From: Deinococcaceae bacterium | GTDB lineage: Bacteria; Deinococcota; Deinococci; Deinococcales; Trueperaceae | Direction: 5' to 3' | Assembly: GCA_040256005.1 (NCBI GenBank) | Contig: JBDZWC010000067.1 | Location: 1,975 to 16,426, forward strand | DNA: 14,452 bases | In this document: piece after piece, positions 640 to 9,427 of the stretch | Layout: each line of letters starts with the position of its first letter | Numbering within the stretch: the first letter of the stretch is position 1 | Translations under genes and position numbers: made by a program | The notes under the pieces: generated by a model | The model's input: the letters and a program-made list of their open reading frames with translations, nothing else | What the model was told of the DNA's origin: nothing | The model's database searches: none

Positions 640-3030
<2,391 letters not shown>

Positions 3031-3071
3031 CTGGTCTCCCTGGATGGCGTTGTAAGTGAGTGGGCTGCGGT

Positions 3072-3470
3072 TCAGGTCACGCGCTGCAAGGTCATCTCGA
3101 AGTCGGGCTGCCAGCTCGCACCGGAGTCGTGTGACGCCTCGCCGACGAAGTGGACCTCGTCGGGGCCGACGAAGCGAGCAGTGTAGCGTTGTGAGAACGC
3201 TTCGTCTAGGTTGAGCAGCGTCCACCGGTCCTCGAAGCACTCCACCTCGAAGACCCGGGTGACGCCGCGCACGTCGAAGTAGTGGACCCGTTCCTCGGTG
3301 ATGAGTGCCAGCGCGTCCGGGAAGTCGGGACGGTCGTAGGTGAACCTCAGGAGCAGGAACGCGCCGCCCAGCACCGCTTCGTAGCGCTGCGTGCCCGTGA
3401 TCTGCTCGGGGACAGCGACGTGGCTCATGGTCAGTCGCCACTCCCCGAGCAGTCGCTTCAGGACCGACAT
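3072..3470 (-). CDS. small hypothetical beta-rich protein (DUF1579-like, tentative)
   Basis: 132-aa ORF filling the gap between VOC and uvrA. LLGEW near the N-terminus, LGGAFLL, HYFDVRG and a terminal W..DFEMTLQR resemble DUF1579/lipocalin-like barrels. Confidence 0.7.
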   Translation of the reverse strand: MSVLKRLLGEWRLTMSHVAVPEQITGTQRYEAVLGGAFLLLRFTYDRPDFPDALALITEERVHYFDVRGVTRVFEVECFEDRWTLLNLDEAFSQRYTARFVGPDEVHFVGEASHDSGASWQPDFEMTLQRVT

Positions 3471-3485
3471 CGGTCCAGGTTAGAC

Positions 3486-3881
3486 CTACCGGGCTCCCTT
3501 GAGCTGGGATATCTGGATCAGGTTCCCGCAGGTGTCGTCGAGGATCGCGATGGTGGAGCCGGGCACGTCCGTCGGGGGCATCGTGAACCGGGCGCCGCGC
3601 GCTTGCATGCGCTCGTGGTCCGCGCGCACGTCGTCGGTGAAGAACATCGCGGCAGGCTGGTTCTGGGAGAACCTCGCCTCCTGGAAAGCCTTCGCGGCCG
3701 CGTCGACGTTGGCCTCGAGGTGCAACTGGGTTCCGTCCGGGTCTTCCGGAGACACCACGGTAAGCCAGCGGTAAGGACCGTTGCTGACGTCGGCCTTCTT
3801 CTGGAAGCCGAGCACGTCCGTGTAGAAGCTCAGCGCCTTGTCCAAGTCGTCGACGTAGATGCTCGTGAGTCCGATCTTCAT
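3486..3881 (-). CDS. VOC family (glyoxalase/bleomycin-resistance) protein
   Basis: SIYVDDLDKALSFYTDVLGF, RWLTV and DDTCGNLIQI are typical VOC motifs. A purine-rich SD-like AGAAGGGA lies upstream. Confidence 0.9.
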   Translation of the reverse strand: MKIGLTSIYVDDLDKALSFYTDVLGFQKKADVSNGPYRWLTVVSPEDPDGTQLHLEANVDAAAKAFQEARFSQNQPAAMFFTDDVRADHERMQARGARFTMPPTDVPGSTIAILDDTCGNLIQISQLKGAR

Positions 3882-4021
3882 GTCTCGTTCCCTTCTCTGC
3901 CGGCGTGTAACCGGCGAGTCGTCCCCTCACCCGCACCCGTGGGCCGTGCGCGGGCCATGCTTGGCGGCGGCCCAACGGGGCTGCCGGTCTTCAACGAGCC
4001 GTGGCTAGCTCACGGCGGTGC

Positions 4022-4462
4022 TCAGCTGACTGCTTTCCGTATGAGCTCTGCGACCCTCTGCTCGTTGGCAGTGTCGAGCTCCTTGATCGCATACGAGGTG
4101 GGCCACATCGTGCCCTCGTCGAGGTTCGCCGGGTCCTCGAACGCGAGCGTCGCGTAGCGCGACTGCCACTTCGAGGCGGCCTGGAAGAACACGACGACCT
4201 TGCCGTCGTCGTTGGCGTAGGCGGGCATGCCGTACATGGTCTTGGGCGTCAGGTGGGGAGCCACCGCACGGACTATGGCGTGGATCTTCTCGGCCATCGT
4301 GCGGTCCGCGTCCGGCATCTCGGCGATGCGATCGAAGAGCTCCTTCTCCATCTTGGCCTTGCCCTTGAGCTTGCCAGCCTCCGCCTCCAGCGCCAGTTCC
4401 TTGGCGCGGTCCTGCATGGCTTTGCGCTCGGCAGCCGAGAAGCCGGTGTAGTCCTTGGCCAT
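4022..4462 (-). CDS. DUF1801 (YdhG-like) domain protein
   Basis: GFSAAERKAMQDRAKEL, IAEMPDADR, PKTMYGMPAYA, VVVFFQAASK..SRYATLAF and MWPTSYA match the family. The start overlaps the upstream VOC stop by 1 nt (TGATG at 4464-4460). Confidence 0.8.
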   Translation of the reverse strand: MAKDYTGFSAAERKAMQDRAKELALEAEAGKLKGKAKMEKELFDRIAEMPDADRTMAEKIHAIVRAVAPHLTPKTMYGMPAYANDDGKVVVFFQAASKWQSRYATLAFEDPANLDEGTMWPTSYAIKELDTANEQRVAELIRKAVS

Positions 4463-4872
4463 CAGCGGCGCTCCTGGATCCGGACCATGTTCCCGGCCGG
4501 GTCGCGGAACGCGCAGTCCCTGACGCCGTACGGCTGGTCGGTGGGCTCCTGGACCACCTCGCCCCCGCTGGCCTCCAGCCGGGCGAACACCGCCTCCAGG
4601 TCCTCGGCGGCGAGGTTGATGGAGGCGAACGTGCCCTTGGCCATCATCTCGGCCACCATCCGGCGCTCGTCCTCGGTGAGACCTGGGGTGGCCTCGGGCG
4701 GGTAGAGGACGATCGAGGTCTCCGGCTGGCCAGCCGGCCCGACGGTGATCCAGTGCATGCCCTGGTACTCGACGTCGTTGCGCACCTCGAAGCCGAGGCC
4801 GTCGCGATAGAAGCGGACGGCGGCCTCTGGGTCGTCCTGCGGCAGCATCGCGGAATGGATCGTGATGTTCAT
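4462..4872 (-). CDS. VOC family (glyoxalase/bleomycin-resistance) protein
   Basis: DDPEAAVRFYRDGLGFEVRNDV, WITVGP and QEPTDQPYGVRDCAFRDPAGNMVRI are typical VOC motifs. Confidence 0.92.
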   Translation of the reverse strand: MNITIHSAMLPQDDPEAAVRFYRDGLGFEVRNDVEYQGMHWITVGPAGQPETSIVLYPPEATPGLTEDERRMVAEMMAKGTFASINLAAEDLEAVFARLEASGGEVVQEPTDQPYGVRDCAFRDPAGNMVRIQERR

Positions 4873-4878
4873 GCCGAG

Positions 4879-4924
4879 ACTATAGAAGGGCCCGTCCGCG
4901 TGGCGCTTCTCGATTCCTGACCAG
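4879..4924 (-). promoter_or_regulatory. probable leaderless promoter of the VOC-uvrA block, with a candidate AraC activator site over the -35
   Basis: -10 TATAGT (4884-4879) lies 6 nt before ATG 4872 and there is no SD. There is no consensus -35; CTGGTCAGGAATCGAGAAGCG (4924-4904) overlaps that position instead. Confidence 0.6.
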
Positions 4925-4950
4925 TTGCTCGAGAGCCTCGCTTCGGGTGC

Positions 4951-5391
4951 TTACGGCTCCCAGCCCGGCAGCTTGGCGGCCTGCTCCACCCAGCTGGCGA
5001 ACTGCTTCTCGTCCACCCCTTCGTCCTCGAACACGTGGTAGTAGCGCTCTGTCTCGTGCTTCGAACCCACCGGCGGCATGGGCTCGAGCGAAGTGCCTTT
5101 GAAGAACGTCACCTTCACGTACTTCGTGTAGACGTGGAAGAGCAGGATCCAGCCCTGACCCGGGACGCCGTAGATGGGAGAGTTCCACCGCACGCCCTTG
5201 CGGAGGTCCGGCACGGTCTTCTCGATGATCTCGTCGAGCTTGCGGCCCACGTCGCGCTTCCAGCCCGGCATCGCCTCGATATAGGTCTGGACCGGGCCGT
5301 CACCGTCGCCCTTGGGAACCTGAGGGTTGCCGCCCGCGAGCAGTTTGGGCTTGCCTTCTTCCGCCATGCCTTGGTCCTTGTTGCGTGCCAC
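4951..5391 (-). CDS. DUF1801 domain protein
   Basis: PKLLAGGNPQVPKGDGDGPVQTYIEAMPGWK, VRWNSPIYG, KYVKVTFFKGTSLEP and SWVEQAAKLPGW match the family. Start is GTG 5391 or ATG 5367. Confidence 0.85.
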   Translation of the reverse strand: MARNKDQGMAEEGKPKLLAGGNPQVPKGDGDGPVQTYIEAMPGWKRDVGRKLDEIIEKTVPDLRKGVRWNSPIYGVPGQGWILLFHVYTKYVKVTFFKGTSLEPMPPVGSKHETERYYHVFEDEGVDEKQFASWVEQAAKLPGWEP

Positions 5392-5397
5392 CCGGGT

Positions 5398-5847
5398 TCA
5401 GCTCCGTCCCGCGGGAACCGCGCCCACTGGCTCGCGGCTCCTGACCGGCCTGGTCACCTGCTTAGCCACGCACGGCGGCATGCCCATGGTCGCGCCCGCA
5501 TAGCGCTCCTTGTAGAGGCTGGGCGGCACGCCCACCAGCTCCGTGAAGCGAGTGCTGAACGTGCCCAAGGACGAGCACCCCACCTCGAAGCACACGTCGG
5601 TGACGCTCATGTCGCCTATCCGCAGCAGCGCCATCGCCCGCTCGATGCGCCGCGTCATCAGGTACGAGTACGGGGACTCGCCATAGGCGGCTTTGAACTG
5701 GCGGCTGAGGTGCCCCGCCGACATGTTCACGCCACGAGCCAACGCCTCCACGTCCAAGGGCCTTGCGAACTCGCGATCCATGCGGTCCCGCACCCGCCGG
5801 AGGCGGGCGAGGTCCTTGAGGTTGGAGGCCGACGACGTGCCCGACAT
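5398..5847 (-). CDS. stand-alone AraC-family HTH transcriptional regulator (149 aa)
   Basis: LDVEALARGVNMSAGHLSRQFKAAYGESP...RRIERAMALL...SVTDVCFEVGCSSLGTFSTRFTELVGVPPS is the AraC double HTH, with no N-terminal sensor domain. ATG 5847 is preferred because TGGCACCAT ends 7 nt upstream. The ORF track start is 5889. Confidence 0.92.
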   Translation of the reverse strand: MSGTSSASNLKDLARLRRVRDRMDREFARPLDVEALARGVNMSAGHLSRQFKAAYGESPYSYLMTRRIERAMALLRIGDMSVTDVCFEVGCSSLGTFSTRFTELVGVPPSLYKERYAGATMGMPPCVAKQVTRPVRSREPVGAVPAGRS

Positions 5848-5929
5848 GGGCGCGATGGTGCCACGTGGAGCTAGCGCTGTCCACCGCACGGATTACGTGT
5901 TGGGCACCGGGCAGGCCCTGTTCCGGTGG

Positions 5930-6283
5930 CTAACCGTCCAACGCTCTCAGCCACTCGGCGCGGTCGCGCGCGAAGGTGACGAGGCCGCCGCGGTTGCTCT
6001 CGCGGATGAACGCCTGGAGGCTCTCACTGCCTCGCACCTCGAAGTCGCCGATGATCGCCAAGCGCAAACGGTAGTTGCTGAACTTCTGCAGGACGGCCCC
6101 GGCCAGGCCTGTGCTCAGGTCGAAGAACTCCTCTGGGAGCGCGTCCGCGGCCAGCAGGACCACGTCCGCGGCCTGGAAGCCGGCGTTGCCCACCAGGTCA
6201 GTAGCGTCGCGCTCCGAATCGATATGGCCCTCCACCAGCTCCGCGACGGTAACGTCGCCGGCCACGAAGGTCTCCAGCCTCAC
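5930..6283 (-). CDS. DUF4180 domain protein
   Basis: LPEEFFDLSTGLAGAVLQKFSNYRLRLAIIGDF...SESLQAFIRESNRG is the DUF4180 signature. Confidence 0.88.
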   Translation of the reverse strand: MRLETFVAGDVTVAELVEGHIDSERDATDLVGNAGFQAADVVLLAADALPEEFFDLSTGLAGAVLQKFSNYRLRLAIIGDFEVRGSESLQAFIRESNRGGLVTFARDRAEWLRALDG

Positions 6284-6312
6284 CGCGGCCCGGCCCCAAG
6301 GACGTCTGACAT
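6280..6312 (-). CDS. possible 10-aa leaderless uORF (MSDVLGAGPR) coupled to DUF4180
   Basis: TAGGCT (6325-6320) is followed by 7 nt and ATG 6312. Its TGA (6282-6280) overlaps the DUF4180 GTG start (GTGA). Confidence 0.3.
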   Translation of the reverse strand: MSDVLGAGPR

Positions 6313-6319
6313 GCGGCGC

Positions 6320-6350
6320 AGCCTAACCGGAGCGGTGGTTGCCTTAGCAT
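6320..6350. promoter_or_regulatory. back-to-back divergent -10 elements
   Basis: Minus-strand TAGGCT (6325-6320) and plus-strand TAGCAT (6345-6350) both fit TANNNT and sit where the two gene blocks diverge. Confidence 0.45.
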
Positions 6351-6356
6351 GGTGGC

Positions 6357-6538
6357 CGGGCGACCTCGCGCGCCCTACCCCTGACCAGGCGCCCCGCGCG
6401 CGCCGACGGTCCACGAGGGATCTTCAGGGGCGAAGGTGGCACGGATGCCATCGCGGGAGACCTCTTACCAACACCACCCGGACACGCGGTGGCATGGGCG
6501 AGGCGCGGGGTAGCCCGCCGCTGCGGGACAGGGTTGGC
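6357..6538 (+). ncRNA. candidate structured 5' leader / cis-regulatory RNA of unknown class
   Basis: About 180 nt between TAGCAT and ATG 6539. Stems: CGCCCC 6390-6395 with GGGGCG 6427-6432; GGTGGCA-CGGA-TGCCATC 6435-6452; CCACC 6474-6478 with GGTGG 6488-6492; CCCGC-CGCT-GCGGG 6514-6527; CCAAC 6468-6472 with GTTGG 6533-6537. Confidence 0.4.
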
Positions 6539-7693
6539 ATGACCAAGCAGAGGTCACTCAAGAAACTCGTGCGCGAGCGCATGCGACGCACGGGCGAGAC
6601 GTACACCACCGCACACCGCGTCATCACCTCCAGACGACCCGAGAGCCGCCCACCCGGGCTCATACCGTCTTACCCGGAGCCCGGGTATGCCGTTCACAGG
6701 GAGTCGGCATTGGTTCAGAGGCTCTTGGCTTCTGCCGGGCTCGAGCTCTCAGAGGCGATGGTCTGCGGTCTGGGCGGAGGGATCGGCTTCATGTACGCGG
6801 TCTTCGACTACAAGCCCCTGCCCCATCCGCTGCTTACGTTCGTAGCGCAGCATCACCCGCGTCCGTGGGTCGAGCAGGTGGCCGAGAGCCTCCACTTGCA
6901 TCTCAGCAGCGTGGCCTCGTCGAGCGCCAAGGCGGCGCTGGCGAAGCTAGACGCGGTGCTCGACTCCGGCCAGCCGGCGTTGATCACGGTGGGCCGAGGC
7001 GGCCTGCCGTGGTTCTCGGACATGAGCCCGGTCGAGGCAGCGGACCCGTACAACATCGCCGTCGTGGGCAAGCGCGGTGAGGACTACCTGATCGACGACT
7101 GCAGCGAGACCGTGCAGACAGCAACTGCGGACGCCCTGGCCGGCGCCTGGGGCATGTACCGGAAGGGTCGCTACGCCGTCCAGACGCTGGCTGAGCCCAG
7201 CGACGGACGCGCGGACATGACGGACGCGCTGCGGGCGGCGATCGGTACGACCGCGGCGCACATGACGGGACCGGTGCTAGGCAACTCCTTCGACGTCAAC
7301 TTCGGCCTCAGCGGCATCGCGAAGTGGGCAGACGAGCTGACGGACCTGCGCACGAAGAAGGGGTGGCATGCGCGTTTCGGTGCTGAGCCGGGCTTCGAGC
7401 ACGCGATGACCAGGGTCGCCGAGTGCTTCACCCACGCCTACAGCGCGCCAGGAGCCACCCGTCCGATCTACGCCCGCTTCCTCGAGGAGGCGGCGTCGGT
7501 GTCCTCGCTGCCACTGGCACCGGCCGCCGGGATCGCGGCCGAGAGCGGCGCGCTCTGGGAGCAGGTCGTAGAGGTAGCCGCGCAGGCGAATGACCCAGTC
7601 ACGGCGTTCGCCGCGATCGGCGACCTCGCCCGCCGACTGCATGGAGTGGAGTCACGGCTCGCCGGGGCGCTCGGGCGAGCGGTAGAGGCGTAG
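6539..7693 (+). CDS. BtrH N-terminal (papain/NlpC-P60-like) plus DUF4872-like protein with a basic N-terminal helical module, 384 aa
   Basis: LSEAMVCGLGGGIGFMY..F, LDSGQPALITV, LPW, VVG and GL.GI.KWADEL, then GATRPIYARFLEEA and ESGALW, match BtrH_N/DUF4872 proteins. Start reassigned from 5693 to ATG 6539 (MTKQRSLKKLVRERMRRTGETYTTA). Confidence 0.75.
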   Translation: MTKQRSLKKLVRERMRRTGETYTTAHRVITSRRPESRPPGLIPSYPEPGYAVHRESALVQRLLASAGLELSEAMVCGLGGGIGFMYAVFDYKPLPHPLLTFVAQHHPRPWVEQVAESLHLHLSSVASSSAKAALAKLDAVLDSGQPALITVGRGGLPWFSDMSPVEAADPYNIAVVGKRGEDYLIDDCSETVQTATADALAGAWGMYRKGRYAVQTLAEPSDGRADMTDALRAAIGTTAAHMTGPVLGNSFDVNFGLSGIAKWADELTDLRTKKGWHARFGAEPGFEHAMTRVAECFTHAYSAPGATRPIYARFLEEAASVSSLPLAPAAGIAAESGALWEQVVEVAAQANDPVTAFAAIGDLARRLHGVESRLAGALGRAVEA

Positions 7694-7776
7694 GACGCTG
7701 ACCGGGCCGGCGGCCGACGTGGCAGGGTCACGACCGCGGCGGCCGCCGGCCGAGCGAAGGGCTAAGCTCCGAAGCG

Positions 7777-8571
7777 GTGACAGATGTGAACAGCGCAGTA
7801 GCCGCCCCGGAACCGGGCGCCACGCCCAAGGCAACGACGCAGGAGCAGCTCGCGACCAACCTCGCTTCGATTCGTGCGCGGATCGAAGCGGCGTGCCGCC
7901 GCGTGGGCCGCGACCCGGCCGAGGTGGAGCTGCTGCCCGTCAGCAAGACCGTGCCGGCCGAGGTCCTGCGCCTCGCCTACGCCGCAGGGACCAGGAAGCT
8001 GGGAGAGAACAAGGTGCAGGAGGCCAGGGAGAAAGCCGAGGAACTCTCCGACCTAGCCGACCTCCGCTGGGCGGTGATCGGCAACCTGCAGACGAACAAG
8101 GCCAAGTACGTGGCACGCTTCGCTCACGAGTTCCACGCGCTCGACCGTCTGAAGGTGGCGGAGGAGCTCGACAGGCGGTTGCAGCGGGAAGGGAGGGGCT
8201 TAGACGTATACGTGCAGGTCAACAGTTCCGGTGAAGCCAGCAAGTTCGGCCTGGCTCCCGAGGACGTCCTCGCCTTCGTCAAGGAGCTACCAGCCTTCAC
8301 GGCTCTCCGTGTGCGGGGCCTCATGACGCTGGCGCTCTTCGCTGCCGACATGGAGCGCGTCCGGCCCTGCTTCGTGACGATGCGCCAGCTGCAGGCGCGG
8401 CTACGGCAGGAGGCCCCGGCAGGGCTGTCTTTCGACGAGCTGTCCATGGGCATGTCGGGGGACTTCGAGGTGGCCATCGAGGAGGGGGCGACCGTCGTGC
8501 GCGTCGGCCAGTCCATCTTCGGCGCCCGTTCGCTGCCCGACAGTCACTACTGGCCTGGCGCCGGCAAGTGA
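7777..8571 (+). CDS. yggS: YggS/PLPBP family pyridoxal phosphate homeostasis protein
   Basis: LLPVSKT (PLP-binding Lys), GENKVQE, IGNLQTNK, VQVN..GE.SKFG, GLMT and LSMGMSGDFEVAIEEGATVVRVGQSIFG. Exact start is uncertain (GTG 7777 or 7786). Confidence 0.95.
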   Translation: MTDVNSAVAAPEPGATPKATTQEQLATNLASIRARIEAACRRVGRDPAEVELLPVSKTVPAEVLRLAYAAGTRKLGENKVQEAREKAEELSDLADLRWAVIGNLQTNKAKYVARFAHEFHALDRLKVAEELDRRLQREGRGLDVYVQVNSSGEASKFGLAPEDVLAFVKELPAFTALRVRGLMTLALFAADMERVRPCFVTMRQLQARLRQEAPAGLSFDELSMGMSGDFEVAIEEGATVVRVGQSIFGARSLPDSHYWPGAGK

Positions 8572-8596
8572 CCGCCGGGGAGGCGGGCTGTACTCC

Positions 8597-9427
8597 GTGA
8601 CCGTGGACCGCGACGCGCTCGAGCCGCTGCCGGTCGACGTCATATCCATCCAGTCGCAGGTCGTCTACGGCTCGGTGGGCAACAGCGTGGCCGTACCCAC
8701 CATGCGGGCCCTAGGCCTCAACGTCGTGCCTGTCCCCACGGTGCTGCTCAGCAACGTCCCCCACTACGACTCGGTCCACGGCGGCCCGCTGCCTACCGAA
8801 TGGTTCGCAGGGTTCCTGGCCGACCTCGAGCGCCGGCAGGCCCTCGCCCACGTACGCGCCATCGTGCTCGGTTACCTGGGGCCGCCGGAGCAGACCATCG
8901 TGCTTGCGGAGTGGCTCGAGCGCATCCTCCACGAGCACCCCGACATCAAGCTCGTCCTCGACCCGGTCATGGGAGACCACGACGCCGGCATCTACGTCCA
9001 CCCCGAGCTTCCAGCCATGTTGCGGGACCGTTTCGTGCCCATGGCGCACGGCATGACGCCCAACGCCTTCGAACTGGAACAGATCGTCGGCCGGTCGCTC
9101 CCTACGCTGCACGATACGGTGGAGGCCGTCCGCGACCTTCTCGCCACGAACCTCGAGTGGGCGGTCGTCACCAGTGCCGCCCCCGGGGAGACCAAGCCAG
9201 GCGAGACGCGCACGGCCGTGGTGACCCGGGACGACGTGAACGTGATCGGTCATCGGCTCGTGGACTCACCGGCCAAGGGCACGGGCGACCTGTTCACGGC
9301 CGCCCTCGTCGGCGGCCTGCTGCGTGGCTACGCGCTGAAGGCTGCGGCCAAGGCGGCGGCAGAGCGCACGGTCGCTGTGCTGGAGCACAGCGCCGCCCTG
9401 GGCTGCGGCGAGCTCGTGCTGGTATGA
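8597..9427 (+). CDS. pdxK: pyridoxal/pyridoxine/pyridoxamine kinase (PdxK/PdxY family)
   Basis: ISIQSQVVYGSVGNS, PTVLLSNVPHY, GYLG, DPVMGD, TPNAFELE, VVTSA and KGTGDLF. The QSQVVYGSVGNS and PHY motifs resemble E. coli PdxK more than PdxY. Confidence 0.9.
   Translation: MTVDRDALEPLPVDVISIQSQVVYGSVGNSVAVPTMRALGLNVVPVPTVLLSNVPHYDSVHGGPLPTEWFAGFLADLERRQALAHVRAIVLGYLGPPEQTIVLAEWLERILHEHPDIKLVLDPVMGDHDAGIYVHPELPAMLRDRFVPMAHGMTPNAFELEQIVGRSLPTLHDTVEAVRDLLATNLEWAVVTSAAPGETKPGETRTAVVTRDDVNVIGHRLVDSPAKGTGDLFTAALVGGLLRGYALKAAAKAAAERTVAVLEHSAALGCGELVLV

Follow-up and report, generated by a model that had tools for sequence, protein, structure and literature searches.

The window, a stretch of 14,452 nt of DNA analysed as a whole and numbered from its first letter, carries a portable module in which a conserved, covarying RNA is co-distributed with a basic N-terminal protein segment, the tag, on variable protein bodies, as a sequence-only reading of this DNA had proposed. 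The module consists of a promoter, a structured 5' leader and the 30-residue tag. On balance, we think that the tag probably binds its own leader and holds it shut, which would make the module a portable translational autorepression cassette; both the binding and its sign are inferred from sequence comparison and predicted structures. The window contains the following features:

6345..6350, plus strand: -10 box TAGCAT, invariant in six of six same-genus leaders
6358..6375, plus strand: hairpin P1 (6358-6362/6371-6375), whose loop 6365-6369 forms pseudoknot PK1
6378..6430, plus strand: helix P2 (6378-6382/6426-6430) enclosing P2b (6388-6392/6400-6404), both with covariation
6431..6457, plus strand: YRRA junction CGAA (6431-6434), hairpin P3 (6435-6452) and the 3' strand of PK1 (6453-6457)
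6472..6541, plus strand: long 3' hairpin, a predicted fold, with 5' arm at about 6472-6499, an apical loop and 3' arm at 6513-6541
6539..6628, plus strand: coding sequence of the 30-residue basic tag, consensus MTxxKxFKRxVRxRMxKTGESYTxARR
6539..7693, plus strand: 384-aa gene encoding the tag, a Pro-rich linker, BtrH_N and DUF4872 (Pfam)

The leader occupies the longest intergenic stretch of the window and likely begins at the transcript start. The gap at 6284-6538 measures 255 nt while the next longest between genes called in the window has 140 nt, which bears out the earlier description. The open reading frame behind it (6539-7693, plus strand, 384 aa) opens with MTKQRSLKKLVRERMRRTGETYTTAHR and encodes a BtrH_N domain at residues 53-188 (nt 6695-7102, Pfam E 6e-21) and a DUF4872 domain at residues 214-378 (nt 7178-7672, Pfam E 3e-13). 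Close homologues of the protein are named Trueperaceae, and a single copy of tag and RNA was found in the source genome. The TAGCAT previously claimed as a -10 box is present at 6345-6350. Among 106 non-redundant leaders, 69 have a TANNNT box that stops 3-12 nt short of P1, and in 59 of them the distance is 6-8 nt; the count at control positions is 0 of 103. With such a box just ahead of P1, the RNA likely begins at the transcript start, which is predicted at around 6357-6359, at the first helix P1, and thus about 180 nt upstream of the ATG at 6539 rather than next to it. One 215-nt contig from an RNA run spans 6419-6633 at a depth of 2.6; being a contig, it does not allow start, strand or level to be read from it. 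As the frame is open from 5693, we considered whether the leader encodes an N-terminal extension of the protein and rejected this based on lengths and stops in relatives: the distance from P1 to the start codon is 180, 176, 180, 180, 172 and 174 nt in six relatives and the frame ends inside the leader in two of them.

The 5' part of the leader adopts a conserved fold with two pseudoknots. One architecture could be parsed upstream of the tag in 82 of the 84 distinct loci first examined. Within this set, L080 was misparsed yet is matched by the RNA model, L009 carries the RNA farther upstream and the phage locus L100 carries none. A covariance model of the 5' core, built from 61 sequences, matches the window at 6358-6460 with 49 bits, the window leader itself being a training sequence. 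Across 92 aligned model matches (one of them a weak stray), 96.1% of cells in the core helices are paired, against 76.6% after shuffling and 43-61% in slid registers, and double changes occur in 18 of 21 pairs. Individually, P1 is paired in 98.9% of cells with double changes in three of four pairs, P2 and P2b in 99.1% and 90.9% with double changes in 11 of 12 pairs, and P3, which coincides with a stem noted earlier at 6435-6452, in 98.0%. PK1, formed by the P1 loop (6365-6369) and the strand following P3 (6453-6457), is not part of the covariance model; it is paired in 89.9% of cells compared with 65% after shuffling and 26-55% in slid registers, its columns having been chosen on the same alignment and the identical register reached separately in leader parsing. 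The junction reads CAAA, TAAA, CGAA or CAGA in 117 of 118 parsed leaders, words that the parser favours. An additional genus-specific hairpin near 6408-6422 within P2 is seen in folding only.

PK2 connects the 7 nt loop of P2b (CCCGCGC, 6393-6399) to a downstream 7-mer and is perfect in 78 of 118 leaders as opposed to 12% when foreign leaders are combined. Loop variants are numerous and include CCCCAGC, CTCACGC, CCCACGC and CCCGCGC. The pairing of GCCCCGCGC with GCGCGGGG, put forward as one of two mutually exclusive options, is thus retained as a conserved 7-bp kissing loop (6393-6399/6503-6509) that is compatible with the other helices instead of being an alternative to them; the second option, CTACCCC with GGGGTAG, is not retained among relatives. 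Taken by comparison of leaders, the fold comprising P1-P3, PK1 and the 7-bp kissing loop PK2 is shown by the wide leader set. Covariation within the six same-genus leaders does not reach significance, with 169 of 500 shuffles scoring as high, and the signal comes from the wide set. The structured leader stands on conservation and covariation, and folding energy was dropped as evidence: that of 6358-6541 is ordinary (z -0.66; 51 of 200 shuffles fold equally well), and the minimum-energy fold of the window leader differs from the covarying one. In agreement with the earlier impression that the leader is no known riboswitch, no Rfam 15 covariance model matches the window leader at E<=5, nor any leader of 20 loci at the gathering score or of 18 loci at E<=5.

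The remainder of the leader is predicted to fold into a long hairpin burying the ribosome-binding site and start codon. With the PK2 partner kept single-stranded, this part folds as one hairpin displaying the partner GCGCGGG (6503-6509) in its apical loop while its 3' arm runs through the Shine-Dalgarno sequence (SD) and start codon into the coding sequence. Two segments, 6474-6492 and 6514-6527, were read earlier as separate hairpins but fit better as opposite arms of this one. Similarly, the exact register of the CCAAC/GTTGG pairing proposed next to the start codon is not conserved, but a predicted pairing over the start region is. We compared own with foreign arms in 106 of the 118 leaders, those in which the kiss lies 22-45 nt from the start and P1 is preceded by 12 nt or more. 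Own pairing is better than foreign in 85 of 106 leaders for the upper arms, in 76 of 106 for the arm base with the start region and in 102 of 106 for the kiss. Where an SD could be called, it is predicted to pair with the 5' arm in 76 of 90 leaders, compared with 34% when the arms are shuffled; for the start codon the corresponding figures are 83 of 106 and 39%. Among the six same-genus leaders the 3' hairpin is the least constant helix (80.4% paired). Nucleotide 4 of the gene pairs as A with U in 64 leaders and as C with G in six, tracking Thr or Pro at residue 2, a correlation that exists partly by construction as the pairing was read from folded structures.

The switch between mutually exclusive pairings suggested earlier is unsupported, since a family-wide scan of own versus foreign pairing, which is blind to invariant strands, revealed no covarying alternative that would free the SD; it returned a weak motif enrichment. 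Two candidates were rejected: a pairing of the 5' end with the segment before the SD, seen by eye in some leaders, occurs in 54 of 106 and equals chance, and a strand swap between P2b and a hairpin arm stayed under the 62% print threshold. No terminator-like site was found in 6200-7800, leader included.

The tag is conserved as a protein, basic and helical. The motif K..VR.RM..TGE.YT.A, described earlier as heading otherwise unrelated proteins, was confirmed by profile searches: a profile of the first 42 residues retrieves 1835 longer proteins at E<=0.01, and a more diverse tag profile retrieves 4314 clusters at 50% identity at E<=0.001. Among 118 non-redundant members K8, R12, R14 and T18 are invariant and G19, E20, Y22 and A25 nearly so, the invariance of R12, R14 and T18-E20 being partly built in because these residues belonged to the search patterns. 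The median net charge of these members is +6, and their synonymous codons vary. AlphaFold places helices at residues 3-18 and 22-31 (mean pLDDT 78), and the tag is accordingly predicted to be a helix-turn-helix hairpin. In the 390 listed matches its position is the start of the protein or, where the call is too long, a Met some dozens of residues further in. The tag has no Pfam, NCBIfam or PDB match, and fold, PDB-sequence and Atlas searches gave nothing significant. No interpretable residue-nucleotide covariation links tag and RNA, the mutual information between them being confounded by kinship and set aside.

More than 15 unrelated protein bodies are found behind the tag. Those seen together with the RNA include BtrH_N with DUF4872, DUF4287 with SRPBCC, CN hydrolase, BFN, APH, Clp_N, ankyrin, TPR, WD40, Ser/Thr kinase, sigma-70 and glyoxalase domains, while ClpS, ClpX zinc finger, DnaJ, LRR and DUF2087 bodies were seen at the protein level only. 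The bodies therefore vary as expected from the earlier reading, but they are not all sensors: enzymes, repeat proteins and protease or chaperone adaptor domains are among them. The tag occurs in six phyla as named in the records (Deinococcota, Actinomycetota, Planctomycetota, Acidobacteriota, Gemmatimonadota and, for the sixth, Gammaproteobacteria) with a patchy distribution: 31 of 201 genomes in a sample of the actinomycete phylum (three unpublished genomes included), nine of 151 acidobacterial genomes (one unpublished genome included) and four of 301 proteobacterial genomes, two of the latter being weak and spurious-looking. The unpublished genomes enter these tallies alone and support no other statement. 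Genomes carry up to four copies of the cassette. A single tag locus is present in the viral collection.

Comparison of loci shows that the RNA follows the tag and not the body. In 160 whole genomes of the actinomycete phylum the core model yields 27 matches, weak copies possibly being missed as 54 candidates were scored per genome; 24 sit immediately ahead of a tag gene, and the remaining three are truncated cores devoid of the kissing partner. Conversely, 29 of the 31 tag genes in these genomes have an RNA match of at least 20 bits. Of the other two, L138 has a variant RNA and L137 has none and lies beside a decayed tag. In metagenomes, 68 of 69 held-out tag loci carry the RNA (69 of 80 loci had enough upstream DNA). 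The RNA model matches none of seven BtrH-like loci lacking the tag (L012-L016, L018 and L019, two of which are contig fragments), and no intact RNA was found ahead of any gene without a tag in the 160 genomes. Conserved, covarying RNA thus precedes tag genes across different fusions. Adjacent elements travel together in any case, and co-occurrence consequently does not prove contact between RNA and tag.

Departures from this pattern also occur. The tag persists without a recognisable RNA at phage locus L100 and in most of a Streptomycetaceae clade with divergent tags. Divergent tags are accompanied by divergent RNAs, the exact kiss surviving at seven of 25 weak tags compared with a background of 63 of 2280 (2.8%); the remaining 18 have no exact kiss. 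Variant leaders were seen before divergent tags at L193-L196, L209, L210, L214-L216 and L138. They possess a kiss of the CCCACGC/GCGTGGG type and mostly a CAAGG junction, and they escape the RNA core model R1. Truncated 5' cores with neither hairpin nor tag are present at L145, L146 and L163; the one at L163 is fused straight to a BtrH fragment, and the one at L146 precedes a gene which we take to resemble that of ribosomal protein S15. In the same-genus orthologue L007 (minus strand, about 1500-1530 from its end), RNA and tag are both absent. This locus keeps the -10 box and an open 357-aa body, apparently through a single deletion, and so represents one event. At L009 (1221-1500) the RNA is followed by a 37-codon ORF starting MTR, the stop of which overlaps the GTG of the tag gene.

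The simplest reading we infer from a basic, predicted helical hairpin standing nearly always behind one predicted start-burying RNA fold is autorepression. The tag would likely bind its own leader and clamp the hairpin in which ribosome-binding site and start codon are predicted to be hidden, and the protein would repress its own translation whatever body stands behind the tag. When no tag is bound, the hairpin base would presumably open often enough, or fold late enough, for ribosomes to load. More speculatively, the strength of the feedback could depend on bodies that bind ligands or proteins (SRPBCC, Clp_N, ClpS, ClpX zinc finger, DnaJ, repeats).

The RNA could instead sense a metabolite, ion or temperature and open the RBS hairpin, the tag being an adjacent passenger with a separate job. 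Riboswitch-like complexity, conserved junction nucleotides and the predicted SD-burying hairpin fit a sensor, and a passenger acting as a degradation, localisation or partner-binding signal would suit the several bodies that are protease or chaperone adaptor domains. We nevertheless consider a sensor unlikely: the genes downstream of a metabolite-sensing riboswitch would be expected to share a pathway, but the bodies found here are unrelated and no pathway is common to them; we know of no riboswitch that needs a conserved N-terminal peptide; and in the 160 genomes intact RNA was found only ahead of tag genes.

Many lineages contain a second, in-frame start site just behind the tag. An in-frame SD and start codon are present at codons 30-56 in 24 of 52 CN-hydrolase members, compared with 183 of 1854 control windows, and fusions to Clp_N, BFN, ankyrin, kinase, sigma and glyoxalase bodies show the same arrangement. 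The BtrH class, the window's gene included, lacks it (0 of 75), and DUF4287 is at background (7 of 63). In CN-hydrolase members the internal SD often uses a GGA codon, which is rare within the tag. In the actinomycete CN-hydrolase fusions L136, L189 and L218-L244 it often lies at codons 31-38 in a small CTCC-N4-GGAG hairpin; seen by eye just before the second ATG, this hairpin suggests translational coupling. The internal sites suggest in-frame insertion of the cassette ahead of complete genes, and some tag genes with an internal start may make two products; neither applies to the window's gene.

Such sites would also suit a tag acting in cis or as an activator, with the nascent tag or translating ribosome remodelling the leader or opening the restart site, which would result in positive feedback or translational coupling to the body. 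The tag is aligned at the protein start in the matches examined, and the default fold is predicted to be OFF, so that something must open the leader. However, the two largest classes are those at or below background for internal starts, and the N-terminal position follows simply from cassette capture, making this arrangement quite unlikely in our view. We also consider it improbable that the leader serves as a stable scaffold RNA to which the tag tethers the body, the resulting ribonucleoprotein localising or storing it and SD burial being a side effect: a compact, double-knotted fold starting at the predicted transcript start would be expected of a scaffold, but the leader has no terminator or conserved 3' end, its 3' arm enters the coding sequence and the search revealed no intact copy standing alone. 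A selfish or mobile relic inserting ahead of genes and restoring their expression, its tag serving the element and not the host, would account for the patchy distribution with up to four copies per genome, the decayed remnants and the captured genes that retain their own RBS, but is very improbable given synteny and protein-level conservation within genera and a single viral tag locus that itself lacks the RNA.

Autorepression by the tag would resemble known autogenous systems in part. The S15 and L20 leaders are pseudoknotted leaders of autogenous repression, and in ribosomal-protein leaders the regulator has an RNA-binding day job while the leader mimics its target. Common to these and the module are a structured, pseudoknotted 5' leader near the RBS and a product with a basic, putatively RNA-binding part. 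In contrast, a dedicated 30-residue tag and its leader are here grafted together onto unrelated proteins, and no Rfam leader matches. The rpsF motif is a ribosomal-protein leader described as binding S6:S18 (PMC3895269). Two hallmarks of autogenous leaders are found in the module, a conserved structured RNA in its own 5' UTR and predicted occlusion of SD and start. ANTAR is described as an RNA-binding output domain, small and helical, that occurs on a variety of proteins and has a cognate dual-hairpin RNA (PMC3369931, PMC8934654). The module likewise pairs a portable helical domain on varied proteins with a cognate RNA motif, RNA binding by the tag being putative. However, ANTAR acts by antitermination on dual hexaloop hairpins, whereas the tag RNA has a different fold with no terminator found and, unlike in ANTAR systems, sits on the tag's own gene; the tag has no Pfam match to the ANTAR domain. 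In the plasmid replication of ColE1, the helix-turn-helix protein Rop/Rom (63 residues) acts as a free dimer on two RNAs and stabilises the kissing complex of their loops. The tag is likewise predicted to be a helix-turn-helix and would clamp a kiss, but no sequence or fold match of the tag was found.

Two further RNAs share the layout of the tag RNA, read from few loci, without detectable homology. One is the COG3860 RNA (RF02940, Cis-reg): by eye, both consensuses have a hairpin loop able to pair downstream and a YAAA junction. In five of five loci over the cut-off (L310-L314) 6-7 nt within the motif have a covarying complement downstream, and three folded loci show a long 3' hairpin reaching the start. 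The COG3860 RNA therefore appears to extend beyond its 54-nt Rfam model, a core simpler than that of the tag leader. The genes behind it begin with a small helical Glyoxalase_8-like domain (five loci), and DUF2087 bodies behind the tag are a point in common. Neither RNA model matches the other family, the core model R1 also finding no match at the COG3860 site of L307. Glyoxalase_8 and COG3860 N-termini were rejected as tag homologues at hhalign probabilities of 0.3% and 0.1%, short profiles limiting the power of this comparison.

The other RNA precedes genes that open with the helical N-terminal portion of Glyoxalase_8 (PF20066). Ten of 11 loci examined (12 were fetched) show a leader of their own without an Rfam match, nine of which were aligned, and the eleventh carries the Rfam COG3860 RNA. 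In the proteobacterial loci L298-L306 and L309 the conserved leader lies about 170 nt upstream of the PF20066 match. It comprises GCYYGC, a short hairpin and TGGTGAA, the GCYYGC in most cases having its match, GCRRGC, in the loop of a long hairpin that covers the start, making it a candidate sister RNA family. The sul1 RNA (RF03058), a motif of sulfate transporter genes that lies upstream of them, was rejected as a relative as its model has no match to tag loci. Five of six sul1 loci lead into one large membrane-protein family without a tag, and the sixth has no clean start call.

We tentatively propose, as a possibility we would not yet call probable, that the tag module belongs to an undescribed class of plug-in feedback devices in which a 5' RNA core kisses the tip of an RBS-burying hairpin and a cognate N-terminal helical tag is captured in frame with it by arbitrary genes. 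At least three parallel families (tag, Glyoxalase_8 and COG3860) would then represent orthogonal RNA-peptide pairs, the body being the sensor that releases repression. We found no description of the RNA or tag in the literature, the main texts of PMC5737381 and PMC11109978 included, the supplements of which may list the motif. If the tag binds its leader, the unit would be among the smallest natural RNA-protein regulatory units at about 180 nt and 30 residues. It occurs in six phyla and on more than 15 protein families, and neither half has a family entry in the libraries searched. With such binding, the unit would also mean that gene regulation can be acquired by cassette capture, would hint at what the orphan Rfam motif COG3860 and the N-terminal region of Glyoxalase_8 proteins do, and would offer compact, possibly orthogonal translational controllers for high-GC bacteria.

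The surroundings of the tag-BtrH gene recur in part. The order of the tag-BtrH gene, a YggS-like gene (Ala_racemase_N) and a pyridoxal-kinase-like gene (window 5930-9427) is also found in L002, L005 and L006, and a divergent DUF4180-like gene lies upstream of the tag-BtrH gene in L002 and L006 as well. On the minus strand of 6280-6325, TAGGCT is followed after 7 nt by a leaderless 10-codon ORF running from 6312 to 6280 (MSDVLGAGPR), the TGA of which overlaps the GTG of the divergent DUF4180 gene. Farther upstream, the minus strand of 640-5850 contains a cluster of an AraC regulator, two DUF1801 and two glyoxalase genes together with what we take from its sequence to be a UvrA-like ABC ATPase, a common high-GC stress or drug-response block.
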